Numbered from the stretch's first letter, positions 3,842-33,790 are shown. The stretch: DNA of 64,000 bases from Oscillospiraceae bacterium (GCA_009785335.1 WQWM01000005.1:24597-88596); one strand, 5' to 3'. Translations and numbers: made by a program. Notes: generated from the letters alone by a model not told the origin.

Positions 3842-4465
3842 CCACCTGCGGTGGGGCTCGGCCGCTTCGCTGTGTTCTATTATAGGAAGATAAGACTCAC
3901 GGGCGGCAGGTTGTGAGACCTACAGGCGGGACGGAAATCACGGGCGGCAGGTTGCCGCCCCTACACGCGAGGTCGCGTCGCTCCGCGAGCCTTCCTCACC
4001 CTCCCCGGGGTCGGGAGCTCCTTCCAGGGGAAGGAGCTTGGGGGCTTGAGAGGATAGCGACAGCAAGATTGCAACCCCCACCTGCACGCCTTACGGCATG
4101 CCATCTCCCCCAAGGCGGAGGCTTTGGCACTAGTGCTCCCCCCTGTCGCTACGCGACATCCCCCCTCACGGAGGGGGGCAAGGCGGCTCGCCGAAACATT
4201 CATAAATCGTAAATAATCCACCGCGAAGCGGCTAGGTTTTTTTGGTTCTTTTTTGCATCAACCCCCACCTGCACGTCTGCGACGCGCTTTCCTCCCCCAA
4301 AGGGGGAGGCCTTGGCAACACCTACACATTCCTACAAAAATCCTCGCTCCGCGAACACCACCCTCCACCGAGGGGAATTGAGATTGCTTTTTCAACTCTC
4401 ATATAATCATCCACCGCGAAGCGGCTAAAGTTTTTTGGTTCTTTTTTTCAAAAAAGAACAGAAAA
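3842..4465. repeat. repeat mosaic (Fam-D 3842-3890, REP 3941-3965, Fam-B, Fam-E, two Fam-C units)
   Basis: Module identity with other copies. Confidence 0.8.
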
Positions 4466-4478
4466 GGAGAAGAACAAC

Positions 4479-5708: not shown

Positions 5709-5745
5709 TTGGGCAGTGGCACTCGTTCGACCGTCGTAAAGCTCA

Positions 5746-6055
5746 CGGGCGGCTTGCAAGCCGCCCCTACATGTTGACGCAGCTTACAGCGAAATCATCG
5801 CTCCGCGAGCCTTCCTCAGTCCGACCCGAGGTCGGCCAGCTCCTTCCCAAGGAAGGAGCTAAGGACTTAAGAGGATAACGACAGCACAGCGTGCGGCGGG
5901 ATGTAGGGGCGGCTTGTAAGCCGCCCGAAAGTCTACACTGCCGCCCCTACATGTTGACGCAGCTTACAGCGAAATCATCGCTCCGCGAACCTTCCTCAGT
6001 CCGACCCGAGGTCGGCCAGCTCCTTCCCGAGGAAGGAGCCGAGGTTTAAGACAGC
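5746..6055. repeat. two direct ~105-bp REP-arm+Fam-B composites (5761-5870, 5941-6050) plus REPs 5746-5771, 5902-5927
   Basis: Copies differ at 2-3 positions as read; 180-bp period. Confidence 0.85.
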
Positions 6056-11332: not shown

Positions 11333-11870
11333 AAAAAAGAACCAAAAAACTTTAGTCCGCTTCGCGGGGCCCCGGCGGAGGGGAATTAGGGCTTAAACGG
11401 ATAACGGCAGCGGAACTGGTGGCGAGATGCAGGGGCGGATGTGAATCCGCCCGGGCAAAAATATTAGCTCAAGTGGTCATCCCGGGCGGCAAGATTGCCG
11501 CCCCTACAGGCTGACGCAGGCAAACGTGAAATGTGCAAGTCGCGCAGTCGGTTGATAGTCCCCCTCTTTAGAGGGGGAAAGCCGTCGAAGACGGCAAGGG
11601 GGTGCGAATCGCTCCGCGAGAACCACCCCGCGCCTCTGGGCGCACCCCTCCACGGAGGGGAATTGGGGATTATGAGGATAACGGCAGCGTTGATTGTGCT
11701 TTGGGTAGCGAATAGCCGAAAGCAACAGCAAAAACCTCGCTCCGCGAGCCTTCCTCACCCTCCCCGAGGTCGGGAGCTCCTTCCAAGGGAAGGAGCTTGG
11801 GGCTTAAACGGATAACGACAGCGAAACCGGAATAAAGCACAGCGAAGCGACCCAGCCCCACCGCAGGTGG
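11321..11870. repeat. repeat mosaic (A/T palindrome spanning pepP-like stop, REP doublet 11428-11508, Fam-E, Fam-B, Fam-D)
   Basis: Module identity. Confidence 0.8.
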
Positions 11871-17039: not shown

Positions 17040-17400
17040 TCGTAATTGGGGCTTAAGAGATGGACATGTTGTGTAGCTTGCGGGGAGTGATACTCCCCGC
17101 CTAAAACGAACCCTTTATAGGGCGTGCGTAATACGCACGCATGGTCTCGGCGAGTGAGTGCGCGTATCACGCGCACCATATCCCACACACGTTTTAGGCG
17201 GCGCGTATTACGCGGCGCAGAACAATCGCCCTGCGAAGTCATCGCTCCGTGAACACCCCCACTCGTTGCGACGAGAGCCCCCTCTAAAAGAGGGGGCGGG
17301 GGATTAAACGGATAACGACAGCGTGACTTTCGGCTACAAGCCCTGGTCCCCCTCTTTAGAGGGGGATGTCGCCGCAGCGACAGGGGGTGCGGAGCACAAG
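17040..17400. repeat. repeat mosaic with Fam-G hairpins (GYGCGTATTACGCRC type), Fam-E and others
   Basis: GCGTGCGTAATACGCACGC, GTGCGCGTATCACGCGCAC, GCGCGTATTACGCGGCGC read directly. Confidence 0.75.
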
Positions 17401-17442
17401 CTGCAAGCAACAATGAAATCACCACGCCGCCGCAAAAATAAT

Positions 17443-17471
17443 TTGACTTTGTGCAGGGTTTGTTGTATAAT
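17443..17471 (+). promoter_or_regulatory. promoter TTGACT-17-TATAAT for dnaX
   Basis: Hexamers read directly, 38 nt upstream of start. Confidence 0.6.
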
Positions 17472-17508
17472 TAATGTAGGTAATTTTATGCGGGAAAGGC
17501 AACTTGCA

Positions 17509-19200
17509 ATGTATCAAGTATTATACCGCAAATGGCGGTCGCCAACGTTTGGCGATGTGGTTGGACAAGACCACGTGACCACTACGCTGCGCCGCGCACT
17601 GCAAGCGCAGCGGCTTGCGCATGCATATCTATTCACCGGGCCGCGGGGCACAGGCAAAACCTCGTGTGCGCGAATTTTAGCAAAAGCAGTGAACTGCACT
17701 AACCCGCAAGAAGGGGAACCCTGCAACACCTGCGAGCTTTGCATGGGCATTGACAACAACAGTATTCTTGATGTGATTGAAATTGACGCCGCCAGCAACA
17801 ACGGCGTGGATAACATCCGCGACCTGCGCGACGAAACGAACTTTACGCCCACACACGGCAAATATCGCGTGTATATCATCGACGAGGTGCACATGCTTTC
17901 GGCCGGGGCGTTCAACGCGCTGCTGAAAACCCTAGAAGAACCGCCGTCGTATGTGATATTTATTCTGGCGACCACCGAGGTGCACAAGCTGCCGGCCACG
18001 GTGCTGTCGCGCTGCCAACGCTTTGATTTTCACCGCATTTCTGCCGAAGACATTGCTAAACGCCTGCTGCGCGTTACCGAACAAGAGGGTCTTGCGCTGG
18101 AAGAAGGCGCGGCGATGCTGCTTGCCCGCGTGGCAGATGGTGCCATGCGTGATGCTTACTCGCTGCTGGACCGTTGCCGCACGGAAGGCGAGAATATCAC
18201 CACGGCGAGCGTGGCCCGCGCCATCGGCATGGCAGACCGACGATATTTATTCGAACTGTGCGATGCGCTGCTGACTTGTGATATCGGTGCGTGCTTGCAG
18301 TTGATTCATCAGCTATACCACGATGCATGTGAGATGGAGCGACTTTGTGAAGAACTGCTGGTGCACATGCGGAATCTGCTGGTGCTGCGCAGCGTGAAAA
18401 CCCCGCGTGAGTTTTTGCTGTGTACAGATGAAGATCTTGCGTTGTATCAGGCGCAGGCCAAGCTGTGCACCGTGCCGCAGCTGCTGAAGTATATGGAAGT
18501 TCTTGAGCAGACGCAACAAAATCTGCGCCGCAGCACCGACCGCCGCATGGAAATGGAGCTGGGATTGATTCGGTTGTGTACGATGGGGCAGACCCCCACC
18601 GTCGCACCTACGGTGCGCCAGCTCCCCCAAGGGGGAGCCCTTGGCAAAGATGCAACTCCCGCAAAACCACAGCCTAGCTCCGAGCAAGTTCCTGCGTCAT
18701 ACGAAACCCCAGCTGCCGCAAAAGAGGAAACCCCGGGCGGATTTGCATCCGCCCCTACAGAAAGTGCGCAGCCGAAGCCGCCAGAACAACCCTCGCTCCG
18801 CGAACCTTCCTCAGTCCGCCCCGAGGGCGGCCAGCTCCTTCCCGAGGAAGGAGCCAAGGCTTTAGCGGCAAGCGACAGCACACCTTCCCCTGACCACGCA
18901 ACAGGTGATCGATTATTCGCCGAGTGGGGCATGGTGCTGGCAAAGCTGGGTGAGACGAATCCTGGGTTGGCGGGGATTTTGCAAGGCTCGAGTGCGGTGA
19001 CGCGCGGTGAACATATACTGATTAAAAGCACCAACCCTGCGTTTGAGGCTTTCATTCGCCAACCGAACCAAGCAGGCAGCCTGAAACAGGCTATTTATGA
19101 CGTGAGTGACCGCAAGGTGAAGCTGGGTATCTTCAAGGGTGATGCTGCGCCGCCGAAAGACCCCCTTGCGGAATTGGCTGCGCGGGCGGAGAAGTTGTAG
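17509..19200 (+). CDS. dnaX: DNA polymerase III subunit gamma/tau
   Basis: Start at MYQVLYRKWRSPTFGDVVGQ; Walker A GPRGTGKTS, Walker B IIDEVHML, SRCQRF; 5' part of track ORF 17323.. is repeat-encoded; own promoter. Confidence 0.9.
   Translation: MYQVLYRKWRSPTFGDVVGQDHVTTTLRRALQAQRLAHAYLFTGPRGTGKTSCARILAKAVNCTNPQEGEPCNTCELCMGIDNNSILDVIEIDAASNNGVDNIRDLRDETNFTPTHGKYRVYIIDEVHMLSAGAFNALLKTLEEPPSYVIFILATTEVHKLPATVLSRCQRFDFHRISAEDIAKRLLRVTEQEGLALEEGAAMLLARVADGAMRDAYSLLDRCRTEGENITTASVARAIGMADRRYLFELCDALLTCDIGACLQLIHQLYHDACEMERLCEELLVHMRNLLVLRSVKTPREFLLCTDEDLALYQAQAKLCTVPQLLKYMEVLEQTQQNLRRSTDRRMEMELGLIRLCTMGQTPTVAPTVRQLPQGGALGKDATPAKPQPSSEQVPASYETPAAAKEETPGGFASAPTESAQPKPPEQPSLREPSSVRPEGGQLLPEEGAKALAASDSTPSPDHATGDRLFAEWGMVLAKLGETNPGLAGILQGSSAVTRGEHILIKSTNPAFEAFIRQPNQAGSLKQAIYDVSDRKVKLGIFKGDAAPPKDPLAELAARAEKL
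18618..18879. repeat. three repeat modules inside dnaX coding sequence (Fam-F 18618-18647, REP 18732-18759, Fam-B 18793-18879)
   Basis: Verified codon by codon against the track translation (..LPQGGALGK.., ..PGGFASAPT.., ..SLREPSSVRPEGGQLLPEEGAKALAASDS..). Confidence 0.85.
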
Positions 19201-19230
19201 GTTTTGATGATGATGATGCGGATGAATTTT

Positions 19231-19316
19231 GTGCTCCGGCACCCCTCCCTCAATCCGCGCGACGCGGCCAGCTCCCTCTACAAGAGGGAGCCAAGGATTA
19301 AGGATATAACGACAGC
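19231..19316. repeat. Fam-B variant
   Basis: Similar to 38912-38990. Confidence 0.7.
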
Positions 19317-19334
19317 ATAGTTTAAGGTGATACC

Positions 19335-19826
19335 ATGAATTTAAGCCCTGCGAATTGCACGAATTGTCAGGCTCCGCTGGAGGTTGCAAACCCAGCGGCG
19401 TTGTGCACGTTTTGTCGCACACCCTATGTGGATAACTCCACAACTGCATCTATCCCTGCACAAAAAGAAGATTTTTTGCTTGTGGATGGCGTGTTGCTAC
19501 GTTATCAGGGCGATGATGCGGTGGTGGTGATTCCCGGTGAGGCAACCACGATTGGCCCGGCAGCCTTTGCAGGCAATGAACGACTGCGGCATGTGATTCT
19601 CCCCGAAAGCGTGATGGAAATTGAAGCCGATGCCTTTGCGGATTGCCCCAAGCTGTGCCATGTGACGATGGATGAAAATGGCTGGAATTACTTTTTTGCG
19701 CATTTTCCGCACAGCGAAGAGGGTGCCAAGCGGCTTGTATGGCAGGCAGATGGCAGATGCACGCACTGTGGTGGAAAGATTGCGCGTATACGTAGGAAAT
19801 GTAAGCAATGTTATATATCATGTTAG
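19335..19826 (+). CDS. BspA-type leucine-rich-repeat protein with terminal zinc ribbons (163 aa)
   Basis: CTNCQ..CTFC and CTHCGG..CKQC ribbons; IPGEATTIGPAAFAGNERLRHVILPESVMEIEADAFADCPKL repeats. Confidence 0.6.
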   Translation: MNLSPANCTNCQAPLEVANPAALCTFCRTPYVDNSTTASIPAQKEDFLLVDGVLLRYQGDDAVVVIPGEATTIGPAAFAGNERLRHVILPESVMEIEADAFADCPKLCHVTMDENGWNYFFAHFPHSEEGAKRLVWQADGRCTHCGGKIARIRRKCKQCYISC

Positions 19827-19850
19827 CGAATGTGTAAACAAAAAGCTCGC

Positions 19851-19936
19851 AATCGCTCGCGAGCCTTCCTCAGACCGCACGGCGCGGCCAGCTCCTTCCG
19901 GAGGAAAGAGCTGAGGTTTAAAAGGATCAACCGACA
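19851..19936. repeat. Fam-B module
   Basis: TCGCTCGCGAGCCTTCCTCAG..CCAGCTCCTTCCGGAGGAAAGAGC. Confidence 0.75.
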
Positions 19937-19978
19937 GTTAAATCTTTCACATAATTCTTTATCAAGGAGTAATCAACC

Positions 19979-20344
19979 ATGAAAGCACGTTTACCCAAAG
20001 AATACGCAGGCGGCGGCCAAGCGGCCATGATGAAACAACTGCAAAAAATGCAAGACGACATGGCTGCTGCACAACAACAGGTAGAGGAGTCTACCTTTAG
20101 CGCAAGCGTGGGCGGCGGCACTGTGACCGCCGAATGCAGCGGCAAACAACAGCTGATGAGCATTAAAATTGACCCCGAAGTGATTGATCCCGAAGAAGCT
20201 GAGATGCTGGAGGATCTGGTGCTTGCAGCGGTGAATGAAGCACTGAGCAAAGCTGCTGCTGCCATGGATGGTGCGATGTCACAGGCGCAGGGCGGCATGG
20301 CGGGCATGCTTGGTGGCATGGGGCTGCCGGGAATGGGCTTATAA
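19979..20344 (+). CDS. ybaB: YbaB/EbfC family nucleoid-associated protein
   Basis: 121 aa; MMKQLQKMQ..GGGTVTAECSGKQQLMSIKIDPEVIDPEE pattern; canonical dnaX-ybaB-recR context. Confidence 0.9.
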   Translation: MKARLPKEYAGGGQAAMMKQLQKMQDDMAAAQQQVEESTFSASVGGGTVTAECSGKQQLMSIKIDPEVIDPEEAEMLEDLVLAAVNEALSKAAAAMDGAMSQAQGGMAGMLGGMGLPGMGL

Positions 20345-20348
20345 TAAA

Positions 20349-20720
20349 ATGAGGGACACCTTTCAGTTTCAATTTCAATCCATGCTCCTACTGCTCTTCA
20401 GCATTGGTATGCTAGGCTGGGGCATTGTGCTTGCTTTGCGTTATCATCGGCTTAAACGCGGTGGCAGACGCGCAACTGCAGCAATCAAAAGCATAGACCC
20501 GCGCTATCGCAGTACGGCTATCACCATCACGTGGAAAGATGACCAAGGACAACAGCGTGAGCAAGAAATCACGATAGCATCATCATATCATGTGGGCGAG
20601 GGTGTTGACATTTACTATGATGATGTGCGTGCCATGCTAACGGAAAGCAAGATGTTCTACGGGATTATCGCTTTCAGTACGTTTTTTGTTGCACTGGCTT
20701 TGATGTTGCTGGTGTTTTAG
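20349..20720 (+). CDS. small two-TM membrane protein (DUF3592-like), 123 aa
   Basis: ATG 4 nt after ybaB stop inside track ORF 20268..20720; TM - beta-rich middle - TM layout. Confidence 0.5.
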   Translation: MRDTFQFQFQSMLLLLFSIGMLGWGIVLALRYHRLKRGGRRATAAIKSIDPRYRSTAITITWKDDQGQQREQEITIASSYHVGEGVDIYYDDVRAMLTESKMFYGIIAFSTFFVALALMLLVF

Positions 20721-20744
20721 GGAAGAGCTTAAAAAGGACGCTGT

Positions 20745-21190
20745 TCCCTGCATGCACCCCAACTCGTTGCGACGAGAGCCCCCTCTTTTAGAGGGGGCGG
20801 AGGCTTAGACGGCAAGGGGATGCGAATCGCTCCGCGAGCCTTCCTCAGTCACGCGCGACGCGTGCCAGCTCCTTCCAGAGGAAGGAGCTAAGGCTTAGAC
20901 GGTTAACAACAGCGAAACGTTCGGCGAGATGTAGGGGCGGCTTGCAAGCCGCCCGAGCAAAAATATTGGCTTAAGATGTTATCACGGGCGGATGTAAATC
21001 CGCCCCTACATGCTGACACAGGCAACAGTGAAATCATCGCTCCGCGAGCCTTCCTCAGTCACACCCGAGGTGTGCCAGCTCCTTCTAAAAGAAGGAGCCA
21101 AGGATTAGACGGTGAACAACAGCGAAATCATAAGAAACAAGCCCCATTCCCCTCCGTGGAGGGGTGCGCCCGCAGGCGCGGGGTGGTTTT
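20745..21190. repeat. repeat mosaic (Fam-E, two Fam-B, REP doublet 20930-21010)
   Basis: Module identity. Confidence 0.8.
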
Positions 21191-21210
21191 CAACACAACA
21201 TAGGAGAACC

Positions 21211-21810
21211 ATGGAACAACAGATCGCACCTTTGGCCAAGCTGGCCGAACAATTTGGCAAGCTGCCCGGCATTGGCCGCAAAACCGCACAGCGGCTGGCT
21301 TATCATACCCTGAACATGCCGCAGGCGCAGGCCGAGGAGTTCGCTGACGCGATTTTGCACGCACGAGATGTGGTGCGCCGCTGTGCGCTGTGCTGCGATC
21401 TCACTGACCACGACCTGTGCGCTGTGTGCCGCGCCGCCAACCGAGATAGCAGCATCATTTGTGTGGTGGAAGACCCGCGCGATGTGATGGCCATTGAGCG
21501 CACACGGGAATACAAAGGCATGTATCACGTGCTGCACGGGGTAATCTCGCCGCTGCATGGTGTGGGACCTGAAGCGTTGTGTGTGAAAGAATTGCTTGCG
21601 CGCTTTGAGTCAGGCTTGGTGAAAGAAGTGATTATGGCGCAAAATCCCACGGTGGAAGGTGAAGCAACGGCGATGTATTTGTCGCGATTGCTTAAGCCGT
21701 TGGGTGTGCAGGTGAGCCGCCTTGCCTATGGCGTGCCGGTTGGTGCAGACTTGGAATATGCCGATGAGGTGACCCTTGCCCGGGCCCTAGAAGGCCGCCG
21801 AGAGCTGTGA
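21211..21810 (+). CDS. recR: recombination protein RecR
   Basis: Start [11 protein letters not shown] after TAGGAGAA SD; Hh[13 protein letters not shown]4 finger [16 protein letters not shown], Toprim [14 protein letters not shown]. Confidence 0.95.
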
Positions 21811-22068
21811 GTGGATTACGATGCAACTTTTTTGAAAAAAAGTTGCGCAAAAAGCTTCATACCGCTATGCGGAAGTTATTTGGGTTATTCACAGAAAAGA
21901 TAATCACTTTACAGGGTGTTATGCACAGGGGTCGATTGGGTGTGTGGGCATAACTTGATATTCTGCACATGGGTGAGTTTTGTGCGAGCGCTTGATAACC
22001 CTAAGGTTGCGGGGTTTTGCACCGAGTTAACAGCATATACTAAGACTACGATAAATAGATAGAATGGA

Positions 22069-22299
22069 ATGAAGGAAATGAGCTACAAGGAACAGTTAGT
22101 ACAGCTAGCACACGACGTGCCAGATAATCTTGCGATGGCTATTTTCACGATGCTAAAAAATAACCTTATGATTTTGGAAGAAGTTCAAGACCAAGCGTTT
22201 TGTCTAGCATTAGATGAAACTTATGAAAAAAGCCTAGATAAAGGGGATCCTATTTCGCTAGAAGAATATGCAGCACAATTGGGGGTTGTGCTGGAATGA
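22069..22299 (+). CDS. putative antitoxin (76 aa)
   Basis: Small acidic ORF whose TGA overlaps the ATG of the RelE/ParE-like gene (ATGA); AT-rich by eye. Confidence 0.55.
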   Translation: MKEMSYKEQLVQLAHDVPDNLAMAIFTMLKNNLMILEEVQDQAFCLALDETYEKSLDKGDPISLEEYAAQLGVVLE

Positions 22300-22532
22300 A
22301 CGTAAAAATAGATAAAGATGCCAGAAAATTTATTGATAAACAACCACCGAAAAATCAGATACGCATGCTGCAAGCAATTTTTGCACTACCAAAGGGAGAT
22401 ATTTGTCCCTTGGCAGGGAAAGATGGTATATATCGCTTGCGAGTTGGTGGTTATCGTATCACATTTTGTTATGACGATGAAAGTACAATACTTATCCGCA
22501 CAGCGGGCAACCGCGGCGATGTATATAAATAA
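22296..22532 (+). CDS. type II toxin, RelE/ParE superfamily (78 aa)
   Basis: YRLRVGGYRITFCYDDESTILIRTAGNRGDVYK matches the usual RelE/ParE C-terminal pattern. Confidence 0.75.
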   Translation: MNVKIDKDARKFIDKQPPKNQIRMLQAIFALPKGDICPLAGKDGIYRLRVGGYRITFCYDDESTILIRTAGNRGDVYK

Positions 22533-22556
22533 TCAAATTTATTTGGGGGTATTCAC

Positions 22557-23672
22557 ATGAAATTCACTTGCTCGGTAGCAGCACTTTCGGAAGCATGCCA
22601 ATGCGTGCAACGCGCCATTTCAGGCAAAACCACCATTCCCGCGCTGGAAGGGATTTATATCCGTGCAGCAAAGGGTGAGTTGGAACTGACCGGCTATGAC
22701 CTGGAAGTGGGCATGCAAACACGAATTCAAGCCAATGTGGCCGAAGAAGGTTCCATTGTGTTAAATGCCAAGGTGCTTTGTGAAATTTTGCGCAAACTGC
22801 CCACCGAAACACTGCAACTGGAATGCGACAGCCGCTATCTGGCCAGCATTACGGCAGGCGAAAGCCGTTATCGCATCAATGGCATGAGCACGGAGGAATA
22901 TCCTGAATTACCGTCGATCACCGGCGGGGTGCCGCTGCCGCTGCCGCTGGGCACGCTGCGCGACATGATTAAGCAAACGATTTTTGCCGTGGCCATCAAC
23001 CAAGATGCAAAGCCCATTCACACGGGTGTGAAGTTTGAGTTGGTGCCGGGTGAGCTGCGCTTGGTTGCCATTGATGGATTCCGGCTGGCGATTCGCAAAG
23101 AAGCGATTGACTACCAAGGGGATGAGCTGAACTTTGTGGTGCCGCCCAAGGCATTGCATGAGCTGATGAAAATCAATGGTGATGATGCAGAAGAGGTGTC
23201 GGTTGCGGTTGGGCGCCGCCACATTGTGTTTGATGTGGGCAGCATTCACATGGTGTCGCGCTTGCTGGACGGTGAATTTATGCAATATCAAGCGGCGATT
23301 CCCACTGCGGCGAAAACCGAAACCACAACAGACGTGCGTGAGCTCATTGGTGTGGTGGATCGTATCTCGCTGATTATTGCGGAGAAAATTCGCAGCCCGA
23401 TTCGCTGTGAAATTCAGCCTGCGCAGGGGCGGCTGGAGTTCAGCTGCGCCACCGGTGTGGGCACTGCGCGCGACAGCGTGGCGGCCAGTATTACTGGTGA
23501 AGCGTTTGAAGTGGGCTTTAACAACCGCTTTTTGCTTGATGCGCTGAAGGCTTGCGATACCGACCAAGTGCGTGTGAACTTCAACGGCCCGGTGCAACCG
23601 GTGGTGATGCTGCCGACGGAGGGTGAGGCGTTTCTCTACATGGTGCTGCCGGTGCGGTTGAAGAGTGAGTAG
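22557..23672 (+). CDS. dnaN: DNA polymerase III beta sliding clamp
   Basis: 371 aa; colinear by eye with DnaN (SGKTTIPALEGIYI.., GYDLEVG.., RLLDGEFMQY.., LPVRL end); G+C like housekeeping genes. Confidence 0.9.
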   Translation: MKFTCSVAALSEACQCVQRAISGKTTIPALEGIYIRAAKGELELTGYDLEVGMQTRIQANVAEEGSIVLNAKVLCEILRKLPTETLQLECDSRYLASITAGESRYRINGMSTEEYPELPSITGGVPLPLPLGTLRDMIKQTIFAVAINQDAKPIHTGVKFELVPGELRLVAIDGFRLAIRKEAIDYQGDELNFVVPPKALHELMKINGDDAEEVSVAVGRRHIVFDVGSIHMVSRLLDGEFMQYQAAIPTAAKTETTTDVRELIGVVDRISLIIAEKIRSPIRCEIQPAQGRLEFSCATGVGTARDSVAASITGEAFEVGFNNRFLLDALKACDTDQVRVNFNGPVQPVVMLPTEGEAFLYMVLPVRLKSE

Positions 23673-23692
23673 GGCTGGAAAGGATGTGCGTC

Positions 23693-24721
23693 ATGAGCTT
23701 TACGTTCATTGACTTATTTGCAGGTATTGGTGGTTTCCATCAGGCGGCTGTTGTGCTTGGTGGAAATTGTGTGTTTGCCTGTGAAATTGACACGGAAGCA
23801 AGAAGAGCATATGTGGAAAACTACGGATTAGAGCCACATGGTGACGTTATGAAAATTAACGCAAATGAAATTCCGTACCATGATATTTTGTTTGCGGGCT
23901 TTCCTTGCCAGCCATTTAGTATCATTGGTAATCGTTTGGGTTTTGACGATATTCGTGGGACACTGTTTTTTGAAATCACAAGAATTTTGAAAGCTAAAAA
24001 GCCAAAGATGTTCTTGCTTGAAAATGTAAAGCAATTGAGTCGGCATGACAACGGAAAAACATTGCAGACTATAATAGCTGCCTTAGAGGAAATTGGGTAT
24101 AGCGTTCAATGGAAAATCCTTAATGCGCTTGATTATGGGTTGCCACAAAAGAGAGAAAGAACATTGATAGTTGGTTTTCTAGACCATTCTGTTGAATTCT
24201 CGTTTCCTCAACCAATTGGTACTGGTTGTTTAAACGATATATTAGAAAATGATGATGATGTTCACGAGAAATATTTCGCAAGTCAACGCATTGTTGAAAA
24301 GCGACAGCAAATGCATCAAAGCGATCATGATATGAGCATATGGCATGAAAACAAAAGTGGAAATATCACTAGCTATCCTTACTCATGCGCATTGCGTGCT
24401 GGTGCTTCATACAACTACTTGCTTGTGAATGGAAAGCGGCGCTTGACTCCGCGAGAAATGCTTAGACTGCAAGGATTTCCTGATACATTCAAGATAGTGT
24501 GCAATGATGGACAGACAAGAAAACAAGCAGGAAACGCAGTGCCGGTGAATGTGGTTAAAGCCATGTTAAAGGAGATGTTGCATGCACAGACCGAAGCTTC
24601 GAGACAACAAAGGGAAAGCACCGTTCGAGTTGTATCCACTCGGACAAATTCCAAACGCTGCCATAATAGAGATCAGCAAATGGATGACATATCATTTCGC
24701 CATAGGAAAGTCAGATATTAA
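23693..24721 (+). CDS. DNA (cytosine-5)-methyltransferase
   Basis: Motifs I FIDLFAGIGGF, IV GFPCQPFS, VI ENV, VIII QKRERTLIVGF, IX RLTPREMLRLQGFP, X GNAVPVNV; architecture like M.HhaI-class enzymes; specificity not deducible. Confidence 0.9.
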   Translation: MSFTFIDLFAGIGGFHQAAVVLGGNCVFACEIDTEARRAYVENYGLEPHGDVMKINANEIPYHDILFAGFPCQPFSIIGNRLGFDDIRGTLFFEITRILKAKKPKMFLLENVKQLSRHDNGKTLQTIIAALEEIGYSVQWKILNALDYGLPQKRERTLIVGFLDHSVEFSFPQPIGTGCLNDILENDDDVHEKYFASQRIVEKRQQMHQSDHDMSIWHENKSGNITSYPYSCALRAGASYNYLLVNGKRRLTPREMLRLQGFPDTFKIVCNDGQTRKQAGNAVPVNVVKAMLKEMLHAQTEASRQQRESTVRVVSTRTNSKRCHNRDQQMDDISFRHRKVRY

Positions 24722-25323: not shown

Positions 25324-25355
25324 AGGCGGCTACATATCGTAGCCGCTTGTTTTAT
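25324..25355. terminator. hairpin between convergent REase and TraX genes (bidirectional terminator candidate)
   Basis: GCGGCTAC-ATATC-GTAGCCGC stem-loop followed by TTGTTTTAT. Confidence 0.6.
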
Positions 25356-25360
25356 ATTTG

Positions 25361-26188
25361 CTAGAACCCAAACACGCTAAAGCTGGTGAAGCCAGTGATG
25401 AGCGCGACAATGGCAATCAAAGCCAGGTGCGCAGGATAGAAGCCGTAGAATAGCCATTTTGAACGCTTGCCGCGTTCGCCATTGAAGTTTTTGATGAGCA
25501 GCGCAGCAATGCCACAAAACACTGGGAAGAACAGCGATGAGATGATTACATTTGTGTTGCCCAGCATGCCATAAAGCATGTCGCGCTGTGCTTGAGCGAA
25601 CTCGGCGGACATCATGGGGCCGTCGGCATAGAGGTAAGGCGTGACAGCAAGAATACCCCACACGGAAAAAGCAGCAATGACTAACCACAGCCCGCCAGCC
25701 ACAATACCGGGCACCAGCCGCCGTGCAGTTTCGTTTTTGATCACATGATACAACAGCACCACAATGGGGGCAAAGAATAGCCAATCGAAAAACAGTGCCA
25801 TGGGAATGGATACGATCACGAAGATGAGGACAAAGACTACTTTGAGGGCTGCTTTGTGTTTGAGTTTGTCATAGATGAACAGCAACAACAAGCTGACGAT
25901 GATGGCGAACATGATGTTGAAGCGGAATAGTCCCAACGATAGCATATAGAAGGGGATGGCGATGGTGCCGAAGATGGCCAGCCGAAGGATGTATCGCTTG
26001 AGATTGGACGTGTGCTTGTAGCCCTCGACGACAAAGTAGCCCAGAATGGGGAACGCCAGCCCACCGGCGGCATACATGGGGATGAGCAACCACAGGGGCA
26101 AGATATCTTGCCATGGATAAAGCGCATGGTGCAAGAACATGCCAATCATGGCGATCCATTTGAGTTGGTGTGCGTTGAATTTGAACAT
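25361..26188 (-). CDS. TraX family membrane protein (acyltransferase-like), copy 1
   Basis: 275 aa polytopic; MFKFNAHQLKWIAMIGMFLHH...VVEGYKHTSNLKRYILRL typical TraX N-terminus. Confidence 0.8.
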   Translation of the reverse strand: MFKFNAHQLKWIAMIGMFLHHALYPWQDILPLWLLIPMYAAGGLAFPILGYFVVEGYKHTSNLKRYILRLAIFGTIAIPFYMLSLGLFRFNIMFAIIVSLLLLFIYDKLKHKAALKVVFVLIFVIVSIPMALFFDWLFFAPIVVLLYHVIKNETARRLVPGIVAGGLWLVIAAFSVWGILAVTPYLYADGPMMSAEFAQAQRDMLYGMLGNTNVIISSLFFPVFCGIAALLIKNFNGERGKRSKWLFYGFYPAHLALIAIVALITGFTSFSVFGF

Positions 26189-26955
26189 AGATTATTTTTC
26201 CTTTCAGTTTGATAGTACCAAATCTCCACCGTTACACAGAACACAACGGTTGGAATCATGACAGTCAGCATCGGAGAAATCCGACCTTCGCCTTGCCAGA
26301 GCCCTGGAAAATTAGAGGCGACATGCATAATGAAAACAGGCACAAGAGAATGATATTTTTTAAAGAGCATCACAAACGCACGGTGCATGAAAAACCAGTT
26401 GACCAGCAACAACATAAAGGTGATATCCCACAGGGGTATGCCGCCTACTAATCGCGATGGAATGTGCGCTAAGGCAAACAACACTGCCCCCAGATTGATG
26501 GCCCAAGCATCGTTTTTGACTAAGCCATATAATCTGGTTTGAATGAAACCGACAAAGCTGATATATTCTCGCACAGCCCAAAGCATCACATTGGCTAACG
26601 CAAATAGGAAAGAACCTAAGGCGTTTAATATCCAGCCGCCTGTGATGCCTGGCACAACCCTGCTAAACAAAAAAATGGGTGCAAATAACAACCCAAGGCC
26701 AATTGCCGAAAGAAGCTTTTGCTTGTGCAGACCGATGGAAGCGAGGCTTTGTTTTCTGAACTTAACGATCGCAACCACAATTAAAATATCAATCACGCAG
26801 GTGATAGCAATGATAAGGTGCCAATCCTCTAAAATCTGCCCAGACCCGCCAGAGAAATGTGAATAGCTTAAACTCACCGCAAAATCGCGTAAGATGAAGT
26901 ATGCAAAATAGGCCAGTGCGATGATGGCATCTTTTTTGCTGTGCATAGCGGTCAT
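26146..26955 (-). CDS. CPBP family intramembrane metalloprotease (CAAX protease/Abi-type)
   Basis: Start at MTAMHSKK (GAAAGG SD); motif 1 variant VREYISFVGF, motif 2 VLFALAH, motif 3 HVASN; polytopic. Confidence 0.7.
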   Translation of the reverse strand: MTAMHSKKDAIIALAYFAYFILRDFAVSLSYSHFSGGSGQILEDWHLIIAITCVIDILIVVAIVKFRKQSLASIGLHKQKLLSAIGLGLLFAPIFLFSRVVPGITGGWILNALGSFLFALANVMLWAVREYISFVGFIQTRLYGLVKNDAWAINLGAVLFALAHIPSRLVGGIPLWDITFMLLLVNWFFMHRAFVMLFKKYHSLVPVFIMHVASNFPGLWQGEGRISPMLTVMIPTVVFCVTVEIWYYQTERKNNLCSNSTHTNSNGSP

Positions 26956-26969
26956 AAGCGTCAACCTTT

Positions 26970-27773
26970 CTAGACGAATGCGCGAATGAGCAACATGCCC
27001 AACCACAGCACCACAAAATGCACGGGATAAATAACATAAAACAGCCATTTCATGGTTTTGCTGCGCTTGCCACGCTCGCCGCTATAGCGCGTGAGCAGGA
27101 AGGCTGCAATCACAATGCCGATTTGGAAGGTCATCTGCACGGGCGAAAATTGGTAGTTCATCAATCGGGGCAGATTTACACCAGCCTCGGCAAACTGTGC
27201 TGCCAGCTCTGGTGTAGTCATTGCGGAGGTGAAGAAGCCGATGATCGTAAATATCACTGCGGCAAACACAGGCGGCACCACGCGGCGTGCGGTTTCGTTT
27301 TTGATGATGTGCGCCATGAGCACCATGGCCACGCCCACGAAGTACCATTCTAAGATAACAAGAGACAGCGGCGCAATGACGAGCACGAACAGGAGCCAAA
27401 ACAACACTTTGCTTTTCATTTTGTCATACATCGTGAGCACCAGCAAGCTTGCCACGATGTTAAACATGATGTTGAAGAAGGGATATAGCATGGGATTGCC
27501 GCCGCCCATGGGGATGGTAAGGACAAGGATGTGGAAGGGCAGCGCAAGCAGCCCAAACAACAGCACACGCAAGATGTATCGCTTGTGGTTGGAGGTATGC
27601 TTATAGCCTTCGGCGACGAAATAGGCCATGATGGGGAAGGTGAGGCCGCCGGCGATATACATGGGGAAGGCGAGCCAAATGGGGATGATTTCCCACCAGG
27701 CGATGACCATGTGGCTGGTGATCATGCCGATGACGGCCATGAGTTTGAGTTGGTTGGCGTTGAGTTTGAACAT
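26970..27773 (-). CDS. TraX family membrane protein, copy 2
   Basis: Start MFKLNANQLKLMAVIGM; roughly half identical by eye to copy 1 (FVAEGYKHTSNHKRYILRV, IKNETARR, GERGKRSK shared). Confidence 0.8.
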   Translation of the reverse strand: MFKLNANQLKLMAVIGMITSHMVIAWWEIIPIWLAFPMYIAGGLTFPIMAYFVAEGYKHTSNHKRYILRVLLFGLLALPFHILVLTIPMGGGNPMLYPFFNIMFNIVASLLVLTMYDKMKSKVLFWLLFVLVIAPLSLVILEWYFVGVAMVLMAHIIKNETARRVVPPVFAAVIFTIIGFFTSAMTTPELAAQFAEAGVNLPRLMNYQFSPVQMTFQIGIVIAAFLLTRYSGERGKRSKTMKWLFYVIYPVHFVVLWLGMLLIRAFV

Positions 27774-27983
27774 GAATGTAATTTCCTTTCGGTCATTGAT
27801 TATACATATAGTATAACGCACCTGCGGTGAGCAGTTCGCGCATATAAGTTTGATTAGCGCAAACTATGATGCACGCGTTATAGTATGTACCTAGTATAAC
27901 GCAAACTGGAGGGTTTTGCTAGCGATTTTGGGTGGAACTTTCGCAACTGGCGGTTGCGGGGCGGGGGAATGTGCGTAGACAAG

Positions 27984-28068
27984 TCGCTTCGCGAGCCTTC
28001 CTCAGTCGCACCCGAGGTGCGCCAGCTCCTTCCAGGGGAAGGAGCTAAGGCTTAAGAGGATGACGACA
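27984..28068. repeat. Fam-B module between mini-protein array and TraX operon
   Basis: TCGCTTCGCGAGCCTTCCTCAGTCGCACCCGAGGTGCGCCAGCTCCTTCCAGGGGAAGGAGC. Confidence 0.8.
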
Positions 28069-28080
28069 ATAAAATTTTAA

Positions 28081-28108
28081 CAGGCGGCTACGATAATGTA
28101 GCCGCCTG
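28081..28108 (-). terminator. terminator after mini-protein array
   Basis: CAGGCGGCTAC-GATAAT-GTAGCCGCCTG; T/A-rich run downstream on minus strand. Confidence 0.65.
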
Positions 28109-28124
28109 TGGGTTATTGTGTTGG

Positions 28125-28295
28125 TTAGCTGAGAAACCATTGAATTAAACTGACGAAGCTATAGAGCGCAAAGGCGGCGGGAACGATCAAAATAGACCAA
28201 AATGGCAGGTAAAAATGAAGACCTATGTTAAGCATTAGCCCAAAGAAGAACGTTGAAAAAGCAGCCAAAGCTGAACCGATGATAATCCATTGCAT
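28125..28295 (-). CDS. mini-membrane protein, class B (56 aa), array gene 6
   Basis: SD AGGAGG, 12 nt after gene 5 stop; MQWIIIGSALAAFSTFFFGLMLNIGLHFYLPFWSILIVPAAFALYSFVSLIQWFLS; hairpin terminator follows. Confidence 0.6.
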   Translation of the reverse strand: MQWIIIGSALAAFSTFFFGLMLNIGLHFYLPFWSILIVPAAFALYSFVSLIQWFLS

Positions 28296-28307
28296 AAGCG
28301 GTACCTC

Positions 28308-28460
28308 CTAATAAAAGATAGCGGAAATGAGCCACATGAGCAAGATGGCCAGCAGGGGAATGAGCGCAGCAATGGTGGCGATGGTGAACCCCCAACCTGC
28401 AACTGTGTTGCCGAGGTAGAAATGACCGTGGGCGATGAAGCCGAGACCAAGAGCTAGCAT
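28308..28460 (-). CDS. mini-membrane protein, class A (50 aa), array gene 5
   Basis: SD GAAAGGA; MLALGLGFIAHGHFYLGNTVAGWGFTIATIAALIPLLAILLMWLISAIFY. Confidence 0.6.
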   Translation of the reverse strand: MLALGLGFIAHGHFYLGNTVAGWGFTIATIAALIPLLAILLMWLISAIFY

Positions 28461-28488
28461 TCCGAGATCATCCTTTCTGTTGGTGTGG

Positions 28489-28656
28489 TTAGCGGAAGAT
28501 GCGCACCAGACTGAAGGTGCCGAAAATGAACAGGGCAGTAGATAATAAGGAAAGGAGGGCTGGGGTGATGTTGGGCGTATGTCCTATCTGAATAAAAACA
28601 AAAAATGTGCCAATGGCTGCAATAAAGGAACCAAGTGAAATTAAAATTGGGTGCAT
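28489..28656 (-). CDS. mini-membrane protein, class B (55 aa), array gene 4
   Basis: SD GGAAGGAAAA; MHPILISLGSFIAAIGTFFVFIQIGHTPNITPALLSLLSTALFIFGTFSLVRIFR. Confidence 0.6.
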   Translation of the reverse strand: MHPILISLGSFIAAIGTFFVFIQIGHTPNITPALLSLLSTALFIFGTFSLVRIFR

Positions 28657-28693
28657 ATTAGTTTTTCCTTCCTGTTGTGTCTGTGAGGGCTAG

Positions 28694-28873
28694 TTAGCTG
28701 AAAATCCACCGCCAAAAAAAGTGAAAAAGTATGCCGAAACCAGCAATCGCAGCGGAGACAAGCCAAATAAAATATGCGGTGAAAGGACCAAGCAAAGCAG
28801 TGTTTTGAAAGCTCAAACTCGACAAGAACAAGACAGAGGCTAAGATAAGTGAGCTGATAGAGATAAAATTCAT
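28694..28873 (-). CDS. mini-membrane protein, class C (59 aa), array gene 3
   Basis: SD GAAAGGA; MNFISISSLILASVLFLSSLSFQNTALLGPFTAYFIWLVSAAIAGFGILFHFFWRWIFS. Confidence 0.55.
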   Translation of the reverse strand: MNFISISSLILASVLFLSSLSFQNTALLGPFTAYFIWLVSAAIAGFGILFHFFWRWIFS

Positions 28874-28903
28874 GCAATCAAATCCTTTCTGTTTATGTGC
28901 AGG

Positions 28904-29068
28904 TTAGAAGAAAATCCATCGACCTAAATTGAACATGCCGTAAATAAACATGGCAACAGACAACAAAAACGGAGGGGCGGTGAAGAAGTTGGGCGCATGT
29001 CCCATCATAACAAAAGCGAAGAATGCGCCAATGGCTGTGGCAAACGAACCAATTATAATCCAAAGCAT
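28904..29068 (-). CDS. mini-membrane protein, class B (54 aa), array gene 2
   Basis: SD AAGGAGGAG 5 nt upstream, 12 nt after gene 1 stop; MLWIIIGSFATAIGAFFAFVMMGHAPNFFTAPPFLLSVAMFIYGMFNLGRWIFF. Confidence 0.6.
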   Translation of the reverse strand: MLWIIIGSFATAIGAFFAFVMMGHAPNFFTAPPFLLSVAMFIYGMFNLGRWIFF

Positions 29069-29080
29069 ATTTACTCCTCC

Positions 29081-29266
29081 TTACCAAAAAATAGTGAAAA
29101 GTAGACCTATCAACAACAAAAGTAGCGGTACAAGCAGCACGGCCACAGTGGCAAGGGAAAAAATCCAGCCGCCAACCGAGTTGCCTAGAGAAAAATGACC
29201 AAAGGCCACCAGCCCAAGACCTGCGGGGATGAGCAAGAGCACAGGAAAAATCGAATCTACTAGCAT
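29081..29266 (-). CDS. mini-membrane protein, class A (61 aa), array gene 1
   Basis: Track ORF; SD AAAGGA 8 nt upstream; MLVDSIFPVLLLIPAGLGLVAFGHFSLGNSVGGWIFSLATVAVLLVPLLLLLIGLLFTIFW. Confidence 0.65.
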   Translation of the reverse strand: MLVDSIFPVLLLIPAGLGLVAFGHFSLGNSVGGWIFSLATVAVLLVPLLLLLIGLLFTIFW

Positions 29267-29384: not shown

Positions 29385-29540
29385 GCTCACCACCCTCACC
29401 CCTCGCGACTCGGGGAGCTCCCTCCCAAGGAGGGAGCGTGGGCTTGCAGCCGAATGTTACGATGTCGTTATATCCTTAATCCTCCGCTCCCTCTTCTAGA
29501 GGGAGCTCCCCGAGCCGCGAGGGGTGAGGGTGGTGAATTT
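29385..29540. repeat. ~150-bp inverted pair of Fam-B-variant modules (large palindrome)
   Basis: CACCACCCTCACCCCTCGCGACTCGGGGAGCTCCCTC .. GAGGGAGCTCCCCGAGCCGCGAGGGGTGAGGGTGGTG. Confidence 0.8.
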
Positions 29541-29600
29541 AAGCGTCGTTGAAAATGTCAAAATATAAAAAAATGGGCGGATAAAAATCCACCCATAGAC

Positions 29601-32010: not shown

Positions 32011-32070
32011 GGGGGTCTCCTTGTGATGGTGAAGTATAGGAATAAAACTTAATGTATCAGATTTTGAGGT

Positions 32071-32098
32071 CCCGGGCGGATTTACATCCGCCCCTACA
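32071..32098. repeat. REP hairpin flanking RAYT-1 (3' side)
   Basis: CCCGGGCGGATTTACATCCGCCCCTACA. Confidence 0.9.
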
Positions 32099-32167: not shown

Positions 32168-32641
32168 TTATATGAAATAAAACCTATCTTTTTCCCATGT
32201 TGCGGGGTTTTTGAAAATATATTCTTCTATGCATCGTCGTTCATCATCGTCATGCAGGATATTATCAAAGAAAGAACGCTGCCAAAGTGAAAACCCAATT
32301 CTTCGCGTAACTGCGGCTTTATACGCACGGACAATAGAGGAAAGGTCGGGCGGATTCATATCCGCTCCTACAGGTTGTGGCTTGTTTAAGCTGATGATAA
32401 AGTGAGCATGGTTAGGCATGATGATAGATGCTCCTAAGTCAACATTGAGCATAGATGCGGTTTTGCGCAACTCGTCTTGAGCGACCTTGCCATATTCACT
32501 TAACTGCATTTTACCGTCTATCACTTGGCCAAACATCATCTCGCCATTTTTCACACATATGGTAACAAAATATATACCAGTGCGAGAATAGTCGTATCCA
32601 CGGAGCCGCAAAGAGTTTTTTCGAATGCGATCATTTTTCAT
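32168..32641 (-). CDS. REP-associated tyrosine transposase (RAYT, IS200/IS605-type Y1 HUH), copy 1
   Basis: 157 aa; HUH PNHAHFII; WQRSFFDNIL..EEYIFKNPATW tyrosine region; flanked by inverted REPs and carries one REP in frame. Confidence 0.85.
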   Translation of the reverse strand: MKNDRIRKNSLRLRGYDYSRTGIYFVTICVKNGEMMFGQVIDGKMQLSEYGKVAQDELRKTASMLNVDLGASIIMPNHAHFIISLNKPQPVGADMNPPDLSSIVRAYKAAVTRRIGFSLWQRSFFDNILHDDDERRCIEEYIFKNPATWEKDRFYFI

Positions 32642-32661
32642 GACTTTCCTCGTGTACAGGC

Positions 32662-32688
32662 TGTAGGGGCGGGTGTTAACCCGCCCGG
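32662..32688. repeat. REP hairpin flanking RAYT-1 (5' side, inverted)
   Basis: TGTAGGGGCGGGTGTTAACCCGCCCGG. Confidence 0.9.
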
Positions 32689-32713
32689 AGTGTGAAAAAA
32701 CAACAACTTGAAT

Positions 32714-33629: not shown

Positions 33630-33790
33630 GATGTGTCTTCAAATGCACAAGTTGCACAAAACTGGACATTATCGTCAGCAGGTAGGGGCGGCAATCTTGC
33701 CGCCCGAAAACCTTAATGTTGCCATCTTTGTTATAGCCCGGGCGGCAAAATTGCCGCCCCTACAGGTTGATCGCTTATTTGAAGACAGTC
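33630..33790. mobile_element. MITE/REPIN-like composite: GTGTCTTCAAAT..ATTTGAAGACA termini around an inverted REP doublet (33682-33764)
   Basis: Same architecture as 42098-42269 and 45129-45284. Confidence 0.7.

Follow-up and report, generated by a model that had tools for sequence, protein, structure and literature searches.

Introduction

TraX-family proteins (PF05857), among them TraX of the F plasmid and TrbP of IncP plasmids, are polytopic membrane proteins of ~9 helices without a soluble domain. The sole TraX activity characterised so far is the acetylation of the N-terminus of F-pilin, a small two-helix membrane protein (PMC12423673, citing Maneewannakul 1995). TraX has been classed as the most divergent member, of borderline status, of the transmembrane acyltransferase (TmAT) superfamily, in which the AT3 proteins (OatA, OafA, OafB) and HGSNAT move acyl groups across the membrane to extracytoplasmic acceptors; relative to the TmAT fold, TraX is missing the 9th helix, which is broken in that fold, and the 10th (PMC12423673). 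Here we analyse a trio of chromosomal genes, in which two TraX-family genes (TraX1 and TraX2) enclose a gene for a CPBP (Rce1-like) protein. The trio is located in a 64,000-nucleotide stretch of DNA from an Oscillospiraceae bacterium (GCA_009785335.1, WQWM01000005.1:24597-88596), which is referred to as a whole as the window.

Chromosomal TraX-family genes are widespread in Firmicutes. Those of Enterococcus faecalis are induced by teixobactin, a cell-wall antibiotic (PMC6506618); a literature search for TraX in envelope stress returned nothing further beyond this report, and no paper connecting TraX with CPBP was found. The genes in the window differ from those of F TraX and TrbP in being chromosomal, Gram-positive, and present as a diverged pair of paralogues without conjugation or pilin genes, and they differ from TmAT acyltransferases in lacking a fused SGNH-type partner domain. 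Because TraX is classed in the TmAT superfamily, we infer that the pair carries out acyl transfer to an envelope acceptor.

The CPBP protein of the window shares PF02517, the FxxxH and HxxxN motifs and the first glutamate of motif 1 with the CPBP/Abi bacteriocin immunity proteins and with Rce1. It differs from the immunity proteins in the remainder of motif 1, described below, and in a locus that contains neither a bacteriocin gene nor an exporter. The only precedent for a CPBP protein paired with an acyltransferase is LnsAB of Staphylococcus aureus, a two-component lipoprotein N-acyltransferase in which LnsB has the CPBP fold (PMC7387801). The likeness lies in a CPBP fold next to an acyltransferase; LnsA, however, is an NlpC/P60 protein, the lns genes are not contiguous, and LnsB lacks the catalytic motifs, most of which are kept in the CPBP protein of the window. 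No NlpC/P60 gene is present in the gene lists of the trio locus. A further point of comparison is provided by the LytTR Regulatory Systems, for which LytTR together with DUF3021, a membrane inhibitor, is the signature (PMC6193735). Relatives of the CPBP protein are found directly behind LytTR-DUF3021(-2TM) genes, whereas the window has no such genes. In one related locus (L040), LytTR and a membrane-protein gene with a weak match to DUF6608 also precede a TraX-X-TraX block.

Gene layout of the trio

The three genes of the trio are as follows.

26970-27773, minus strand: TraX1, 267 aa from its ATG, PF05857
26146-26955, minus strand: CPBP/Rce1-like protein, 269 aa, PF02517, in the middle slot
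25361-26188, minus strand: TraX2, 275 aa, PF05857

An earlier note, made from the sequence of the window, had described two paralogous TraX proteins around a CPBP protein on one strand. The coordinates in the table of open reading frames (ORFs) and the Pfam scores agree with this description, and the tight junctions that it reported are exact, with a 14-nt gap between TraX1 and CPBP (26956-26969) and a 43-nt overlap between CPBP and TraX2 (26146-26188). The family assignments, for which the note had proposed a profile hidden Markov model (HMM) check, held for all three proteins: TraX1 and TraX2 matched PF05857 over nearly the full profile length with 75 and 81 bits (gathering cut-off 25 bits), and residues 115-216 of the middle protein matched PF02517 with 33.3 bits (cut-off 22.4). 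The match to the NCBIfam model of TrbP was weak (28.7 bits, against a cut-off of 206).

The longest ORF of TraX1 begins with a GTG at 27821, and a ribosome-binding site, GAAAGGA, is located at 27784-27790. For CPBP the longest ORF begins at 27048. The ATG at 26955 was preferred because an AAAGG ribosome-binding site lies upstream of it, a public gene call (P0001, 100% identical) uses it, and the N-termini of the homologues align there. The ratio of nonsynonymous to synonymous substitution (dN/dS) against orthologues was 0.09-0.16 for the three genes of the trio, and for m5 and m6, two small genes upstream that are described below. All three trio genes are under purifying selection. The order TraX1-CPBP-TraX2 was found again in L014, an independent, diverged contig.

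Exchange of the middle gene between syntenic loci

Five syntenic loci share a backbone of ybjQ-ftsE-ftsX-M23 on one side and dnaN-recR-ybaB-dnaX on the other, with genes for mini-proteins followed by TraX1-X-TraX2 in between. The contents of the TraX block differ as follows.

Window: TraX1-CPBP-TraX2
L091/L092: TraX1-DUF2807-TraX2
L096: TraX1-DUF2807-TraX2
L093: TraX1-alpha/beta-hydrolase-TraX2-CPBP'
L105: TraX1, then a TraX2 remnant

The trio is thus not a conserved module: in the relatives the slot holds a DUF2807 gene or an alpha/beta-hydrolase gene, and in one of them it is lost. The CPBP' protein of L093 is canonical in its motifs (EELMFRR, FGVAH, HVLIN) and is only 23% identical to the CPBP protein of the window, and was therefore acquired independently.

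In blastn comparisons of the window with L091, L093 and L096, the DNA was 80-84% identical along TraX1 as far as the stop codon. The middle gene was without similarity, and identity returned 1-19 nt before the ATG of TraX2, at its ribosome-binding site. In L014, the CPBP gene ends 21 nt before TraX2; the 43-nt overlap in the window results from CPBP reading through the ribosome-binding site and the start of TraX2 in another frame. The GC content at third codon positions (GC3) of the middle gene was below that of both flanking TraX genes in all five loci measured.

Window: middle gene 0.50, flanks 0.735 and 0.685
L014: middle gene 0.65, flanks 0.80 and 0.795
L091: middle gene 0.58, flanks 0.71 and 0.79
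L096: middle gene 0.72, flanks 0.84 and 0.81
L093: middle gene 0.39, flanks 0.72 and 0.69

Between the window and L014, the CPBP proteins are 66% identical (dN 0.25, dS ~1.9), and the flanking TraX segments are 86-87% identical (dN 0.09, dS 0.9-1.0). The CPBP alleles thus differ 2-3 times more than the TraX genes on either side, with a dN/dS of ~0.1 for all of them. The sharp homology breaks, the lower GC3 and the higher divergence of CPBP together indicate that the TraX pair is native and conserved, and that CPBP is functional but exchangeable cargo. The protein families of the trio are already known ones.

The region has also been rearranged in another way. In L105, the first 17 codons of TraX2 run on into sequence that repeats, in diverged form, the 3' end of the M23 gene, giving a chimeric ORF of 51 aa (5739-5894) with a pair of mini-protein genes after it. 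This structure is a direct record of a duplication and a deletion at the locus.

The TraX paralogues and their relatives

TraX1 and TraX2 are 46% identical to each other. In a neighbour-joining tree, the TraX1 and TraX2 sequences formed separate clades, and since orthologues are 84-87% identical and the paralogues 46%, the duplication is old and the gene order has been conserved. The TraX1 orthologues in L091, L093 and L096 are 85-87% identical to that of the window (dN/dS 0.10-0.12), and the GC3 of TraX1 (0.735) is that of native genes. Ten residues were invariant in a 50-sequence TraX alignment that included both paralogues of the window (H21, E55, Y57, T60, R69, E153, R156, R157, R239, H254). 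Both proteins are intact and retain the invariant residues of the subfamily, a candidate catalytic set. They contain 7-9 hydrophobic segments and are polytopic, without a soluble domain; the AlphaFold2 (AF2) model of TraX2 (predicted local distance difference test, pLDDT, 93.6) is built entirely of helices, 13 helical elements in 275 aa.

A search with TraX2 found 591 relatives. The best 120 of the 591 were 43-100% identical, and those among these 120 with a named source came from metagenome-assembled genomes (MAGs) of Oscillospiraceae or Defluviitaleaceae. Several loci contain tandem copies, with three TraX genes in L094 and L101, two in L100, and a TraX-HIT-TraX arrangement in L098; solo TraX genes are present in L097, L099 and L102. 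TraX arrays without any CPBP gene are common. GntR-ABC modules precede the arrays in L094 and L098.

Relatives of TraX on plasmids, found by tblastn, were <30% identical and mostly carried by non-mobilizable Firmicutes megaplasmids. On one Bacillus megaplasmid, genes for a two-component system and a BceAB-like ABC module precede a distant TraX gene. The CPBP protein gave no match in tblastn against the plasmid collection, and a mobile-element origin of the trio was rejected on these results.

We also considered TraX as a candidate for the lipoprotein N-acetyltransferase that was missing in Firmicutes. This candidate was rejected: the Bacillus enzyme is LhaT (DUF1405), which uses acetyl-heptaprenylglycerol (PMC12345273).

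The CPBP protein and its subfamily

Alignment of 21 CPBP-subfamily sequences, including that of the window, showed E130, F160, H164, H211 and N215 to be invariant. Motifs 2 (FxxxH, F160/H164) and 3 (HxxxN/D, H211/N215) are kept. Motif 1 reads RE(D/Y)IxFVG...QTR in place of EExxxR, with Val at the position of the canonical Arg and a conserved QTR seven residues on. Residue 131 is Asp in at least 90% of the aligned sequences and Tyr in the protein of the window. The AF2 model of the CPBP protein has a pLDDT of 81.

Among 5.8 billion proteins, the subfamily is limited to 41 clusters. When genome and metagenome collections were scanned, they gave 8 and 80 loci, respectively, of which 82 were unique, and the ORFs called in every locus were searched with purpose-built HMMs. 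Judging from the isolate names of the MAGs and from the metagenome contigs, we take the samples to be from termite gut. The subfamily appears to be rare and to be seen only in such data.

The association of CPBP with TraX is infrequent. TraX was found near CPBP in 4 of the 82 unique loci (window, L014, L040, L019). The earlier note had suggested gene-neighbourhood statistics for the TraX-CPBP-TraX arrangement; when only loci with 1.5 kb or more of sequence on either side of CPBP were counted, TraX stood beside it in 1 of 21 (the window), and LytTR in 6 of 21. Clustering of all neighbours against all others revealed no widely conserved partner of CPBP, the commonest being a LytTR regulator, a DUF3021 membrane protein and an ABC ATPase. 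Other close CPBP homologues are single genes in unrelated housekeeping contexts.

The order LytTR-DUF3021-2TM(PF13239)-CPBP was observed in L040, L019 and L017, and the cassette is also present in L013. In L034, the 2TM-CPBP part is visible and the contig ends just upstream. The 2TM gene (PF13239, ~108 aa) lies directly before CPBP, with overlapping stop and start codons, or is fused to it.

L040, 9279-9605: 2TM gene before CPBP
L017, 1261-1584: 2TM gene before CPBP
L019, 2599-3102: 2TM gene before CPBP
L034, 1273-1611: 2TM gene before CPBP
L013, 9269-10807: 2TM domain fused in frame to CPBP (P0004)

This Rosetta-stone link suggests that the CPBP subfamily works with a two-helix membrane partner. 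In the window, LytTR, DUF3021 and 2TM genes are absent, and CPBP is embedded in the TraX operon instead.

In a Defluviitaleaceae MAG (L004, 325-4488), the gene for a CPBP protein of the same subfamily, 61% identical, precedes an ftsE-ftsX-M23 operon by ~540 nt. This operon also borders the trio locus, and its proximity to CPBP in L004 could be a coincidence or a weak link between FtsEX-M23 and CPBP.

Mini-proteins upstream of the trio and transcription signals

Upstream of the trio on the minus strand lies an array of six very hydrophobic ORFs of 50-61 aa (28125-29266).

29081-29266, minus strand: m1, type B
28904-29068, minus strand: m2, type A
28694-28873, minus strand: m3, type A'
28489-28656, minus strand: m4, type A
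28308-28460, minus strand: m5, type B
28125-28295, minus strand: m6, type A

The order is B A A' A B A, and the two types are unrelated to each other by hhalign. Type B has the core GLGxxxxGHFxxGNxVxGW, and type A begins with MxWIIIGS. Every one of these proteins contains two hydrophobic segments, is nearly free of charged residues, and carries no leader or cleavage motif. Their few positive charges are located C-terminally, which suggests that both termini face the cytoplasm, unlike those of F-pilin. The two-helix proteins noticed earlier are products of real genes: m5 and m6 are orthologous to the pair in L093, at 84-89% identity and with a dN/dS of 0.10-0.16.

A type A profile search of 5.8 billion proteins returned only sequences of the clade itself, and a full HMMER scan of 1.84 billion representatives with type B returned 4 proteins. 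Pfam and NCBIfam gave nothing credible for the mini-proteins, and hhalign showed no relation between them and PF13239-type 2TM proteins. On these searches, the mini-proteins appear to be restricted to this small clade.

The following signals and repeats surround the two groups of genes.

25326..25348: bidirectional hairpin terminator, common to TraX2 and the convergent restriction-enzyme candidate
27799..27806, minus strand: extended -10-like box, TGTATAAT, ~25 nt upstream of the TraX1 start
27983..28074: REP-like repeat copy of ~90 nt, family D1, between the mini-proteins and the trio
28080..28109, minus strand: hairpin with a 13-bp stem directly after m6, followed by a T-rich run
29387..29536 (29387-29445 / 29478-29536): inverted REP-like pair, I2, between the M23 terminator and m1
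29573-29596, minus strand: M23 terminator, a hairpin and T-run (the M23 gene ends at 29601)

The -10-like box was read directly from the sequence and was not reported by a consensus promoter scan; it is a putative promoter of the trio. The hairpin at 28080..28109 is a candidate terminator of the mini-protein unit. From the hairpins, the promoter-like box and the ribosome-binding site before TraX1, the trio is predicted to form one transcription unit and the mini-proteins another.

A B-A pair follows the M23 gene in L091, L093, L096 and L105. The mini-proteins are present whatever the middle gene (CPBP, DUF2807 or hydrolase), and also when TraX2 is lost. In L096, the mini-proteins are separated from TraX1 by two genes, one with a SocA/Panacea domain and a second, small one, and in L105 a duplication took in both the B-A pair and the M23 3' end. 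As they stay beside the M23 3' end in both of these rearranged loci, the mini-proteins track the M23 3' flank. No comparable hydrophobic mini-ORFs were found beside nine other TraX blocks.

The mini-proteins had been put forward as plausible substrates or partners of the trio. With their own predicted terminator, their independence of the middle gene and their absence from the nine other TraX blocks, this proposal lost its footing, and conserved co-occurrence of the trio with small-peptide genes was largely wanting, the mini-proteins being without relatives outside the clade. The notion of a two-helix partner for CPBP survives in part: a 2TM protein precedes or is fused to CPBP in its closest relatives, but that protein (PF13239) is unrelated to the mini-proteins of the window.

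Restriction-modification and toxin-antitoxin genes near the trio

Three further features lie on the opposite strand, downstream of TraX2.

23684-24721, plus strand: C5 cytosine methylase (PF00145, 299 bits; PADLOC MTase_II)
24582/24684-25319, plus strand: restriction-enzyme candidate, convergent with the trio
22069..22532, plus strand: small two-gene pair upstream of dnaN, a 76-aa ORF and a 78-aa ParE/Gp49-like ORF

The restriction-enzyme candidate had no family match in Pfam or PADLOC. It overlaps the methylase gene by 140 nt as the longest ORF and by 38 nt in the public gene call. The ParE-like match was weak (20.5 bits, under the cut-off of 23). Thus the adjacent restriction-modification (R-M) and toxin-antitoxin (TA) genes of the earlier note are confirmed for the methylase, but its restriction partner is without a family match and the ParE match falls below the cut-off.

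The GC3 of the methylase and restriction candidate (0.36-0.37) and of the TA-like pair (0.29-0.36) is lower than that of native genes (0.62-0.74). The R-M genes are absent from L091, L093, L096 and L105; what comes after TraX2 in these loci is dnaN, TA genes or other genes. The TA-like pair is absent from L091, L093 and L105, and L096 has a different small gene pair at this position. By composition and distribution, the R-M and TA genes are strain-specific insertions in a plastic region.

PADLOC, including its Abi models, gave no match for TraX1, CPBP or TraX2, the only match being the adjacent methylase. The suggestion of a defence module formed with the R-M and TA genes is not supported, as those genes are missing in relatives, have a GC3 of 0.29-0.37, and are accompanied by nothing in the trio that PADLOC recognises. 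The gene lists around the trio contained no bacteriocin gene with a leader, C39 exporter, double-glycine peptide or ABC exporter, and no tra/trb, relaxase, coupling-protein or pilin genes were present in the gene lists of the window region or of 12 related loci.

In L096, the SocA/Panacea-domain protein and its 146-aa partner (4305-5193) are inserted between the mini-proteins and TraX1. This insertion shows that small mobile two-gene modules are captured repeatedly at the spot occupied by the trio.

Discussion

The trio is best described as a conserved TraX pair with an exchangeable cargo gene, without a demonstrable tie to the mini-proteins or to defence. We propose that it forms a single operon of polytopic membrane proteins, at a rearrangement-prone spot between the ftsE-ftsX-M23 operon and dnaN on the chromosome of what appears to be a termite-gut Oscillospiraceae bacterium. 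The TraX pair would move an acetyl or acyl group onto a cell-envelope acceptor, in a role unrelated to conjugation. The middle gene occupies an exchangeable cargo slot filled by horizontal acquisition. CPBP, which elsewhere is a nomadic single gene, often behind a LytTR/DUF3021 pair and a 2TM partner, is here most likely a self-contained accessory envelope factor, for membrane-peptide processing or immunity, that would borrow the TraX promoter. The balance of probability tips modestly towards this reading, that is, a native TraX acyltransferase pair for envelope tailoring combined in one operon with an exchangeable accessory gene, the CPBP protein being self-contained.

Several points weigh against it. 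To our knowledge, no biochemical function has been assigned to the chromosomal TraX proteins of Firmicutes, and the proposal of envelope acyl transfer is an extrapolation, based on F-plasmid TraX and on the TmAT superfamily. Foldseek searches of the PDB gave no match for the TraX2 model at E <= 0.001, so that TmAT structures were not recovered, and no significant match for the CPBP model, with Rce1 (4CAD) likewise not recovered; a profile search of PDB sequences gave nothing significant for TraX or CPBP. With Tyr131, a diverged N-terminus and a C-terminus produced by read-through, the CPBP protein of the window may be catalytically altered. Lastly, TraX occurred within 3.5 kb of CPBP in 3 loci (5 genes) and not at all beyond that distance (259 kb against 216 kb of sequence), an enrichment that is not significant, as the counts are small and two of the 3 loci may be orthologous. 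CPBP proteins of two unrelated lineages have landed beside the TraX pair (window, L093), and TraX is also within 3.5 kb of CPBP in L040 and L019. These observations hint at a non-random affinity between TraX and CPBP, which purely passive cargo would not predict.

The mini-proteins could make the locus a dedicated membrane-peptide maturation or immunity module, in which TraX would N-acetylate them and CPBP would process them. B and A mini-proteins under purifying selection lie upstream of TraX in five syntenic genomes, the substrate of F TraX is itself a small membrane protein of two helices (PMC12423673), and CPBP relatives are coupled or fused to a two-helix PF13239 protein. We nevertheless consider such a module unlikely. 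Three elements intervene between the mini-proteins and the trio: a terminator hairpin, a REP-like repeat and a separate promoter-like sequence. The mini-proteins persist with DUF2807 or a hydrolase in the slot and after loss of TraX2, are parted from TraX1 by a TA module in L096, and were copied with the M23 3' end as a B-A pair in L105; the nine other TraX blocks do without comparable mini-ORFs, and PF13239 is unrelated to the proteins of the window. They carry no leader or cleavage motif and hardly any charge, and their C-terminal positive charges suggest a topology with both ends in the cytoplasm, unlike that of F-pilin; as the mini-proteins are confined to the clade, their co-occurrence with the trio is inseparable from synteny. 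An obligate multi-component acyltransferase, composed of a TraX1/TraX2 hetero-oligomer and a middle gene that acts, like LnsB, as a specificity or substrate-presenting subunit, so that a swap re-targets the enzyme, also seems improbable. It would be in keeping with the order of two diverged paralogues kept across four genomes, the tight translational coupling of the middle gene to the TraX genes, the recurrence of TraX-X-TraX (X being CPBP, DUF2807, hydrolase, HIT or a 123-aa membrane protein), the recruitment of two unrelated CPBP lineages to the locus and the precedent of a CPBP fold in acyl transfer (PMC7387801). However, the middle genes share neither fold nor location, comprising a cytoplasmic HIT protein, DUF2807 (PF10988, an adhesin-head-type domain), a short hydrolase and polytopic CPBP; arrays without a middle gene (L094, L100, L101) and single TraX genes (L097, L099, L102, L105) exist; and the middle genes, with their lower GC3, look more like recent cargo than like subunits that have co-evolved. 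More speculatively, and with small probability, TraX1-X-TraX2 might be a modular, re-targetable system of extracytoplasmic acyl transfer, with a heteromeric TraX conduit, a middle gene that selects or presents the acceptor, and the two-helix B/A mini-proteins as acceptors of the CPBP version. On this view, swaps would diversify the middle gene in a cell-surface arms race in the termite gut, involving bacteriocins or phage receptors. Such a system would have parallels in F-pilin acetylation and in the CPBP-like LnsB.

An anti-phage defence or abortive-infection island, comprising the R-M and TA genes with CPBP as an 'Abi' protein, is very improbable. Near the trio there are indeed a Type II-like methylase, accompanied by a partner ORF, and a TA-like pair, and the SocA/Panacea-domain pair and another small pair in L096 show that the spot attracts such elements, but PADLOC found no match in the trio, the R-M and TA genes are missing in syntenic relatives and compositionally foreign, the TraX pair being older, and plasmid searches gave no match for CPBP and only TraX relatives of <30% identity. 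We find it scarcely credible that the locus is what remains of a conjugative element in which TraX acetylated pilin. The family name and the weak NCBIfam match to TrbP are all that speaks for it, against which stand the lack of tra/trb, relaxase, coupling-protein and pilin genes in the window region and related loci, the conserved chromosomal position between housekeeping operons, and the expansion of the family in tandem arrays in Gram-positive genomes.

The locus shows that a conserved TraX pair can act as a docking site for exchanged accessory envelope genes. It also shows that, in what appear to be Clostridia of the termite gut, the TraX family has expanded into tandem arrays without a link to conjugation. 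Four natural 'alleles' of one operon, in the window, L091, L093 and L096, offer a testable entry to what Gram-positive TraX proteins modify. The rare CPBP subfamily, with its recurrent 2TM partner or fusion, provides a cleaner lead to a CPBP substrate than the mini-proteins of the window. The apparent module of neighbours (mini-proteins, R-M and TA genes) falls apart under comparative analysis.

Other features of the window

The dnaN gene adjoins recR-ybaB-(LRR_5 protein)-dnaX rather than dnaA (window 17323-23672; L093 8630-13118), and this arrangement is kept in the syntenic relatives. A search with Rfam at gathering thresholds found no RNA family and no tRNA in the whole window. ARAGORN reported an 88-nt 'tRNA-Stop' with anticodon TTA at 11538-11625 (plus strand), which is probably a false positive and, less probably, a suppressor tRNA.

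Dispersed two-hairpin repeats of ~60-90 nt, resembling repetitive extragenic palindromes (REP) or miniature inverted-repeat transposable elements (MITE), are present in intergenic positions at 18792-18883, 20826-20917, 21036-21127 and 27983-28074. Related copies are located at 19244-19301, 19864-19921 and 29387-29445 / 29478-29536, and in L091 at 4674-4756. Copies thus lie on both sides of the mini-protein array, and the copy at 18792-18883 falls inside the annotated dnaX ORF (17488-19200).

In the interval between ftsE and ftsX, a 157-aa ORF (32168-32641, minus strand) has a weak match to the IS200-like Y1 transposases (22.9 bits, against a cut-off of 23). The corresponding interval contains a Band_7 gene in two relatives and no gene in two others. 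GC-rich 'CGGGCGG...CCGCCCCTACA' hairpins are found at 32061-32098, 32335-32372, 32661-32699, 33727-33770, 18722-18759 and 20973-21010. The Y1-like ORF, with such hairpins flanking it and scattered over the window, may represent an association of the REP/RAYT (REP-associated tyrosine transposase) type.

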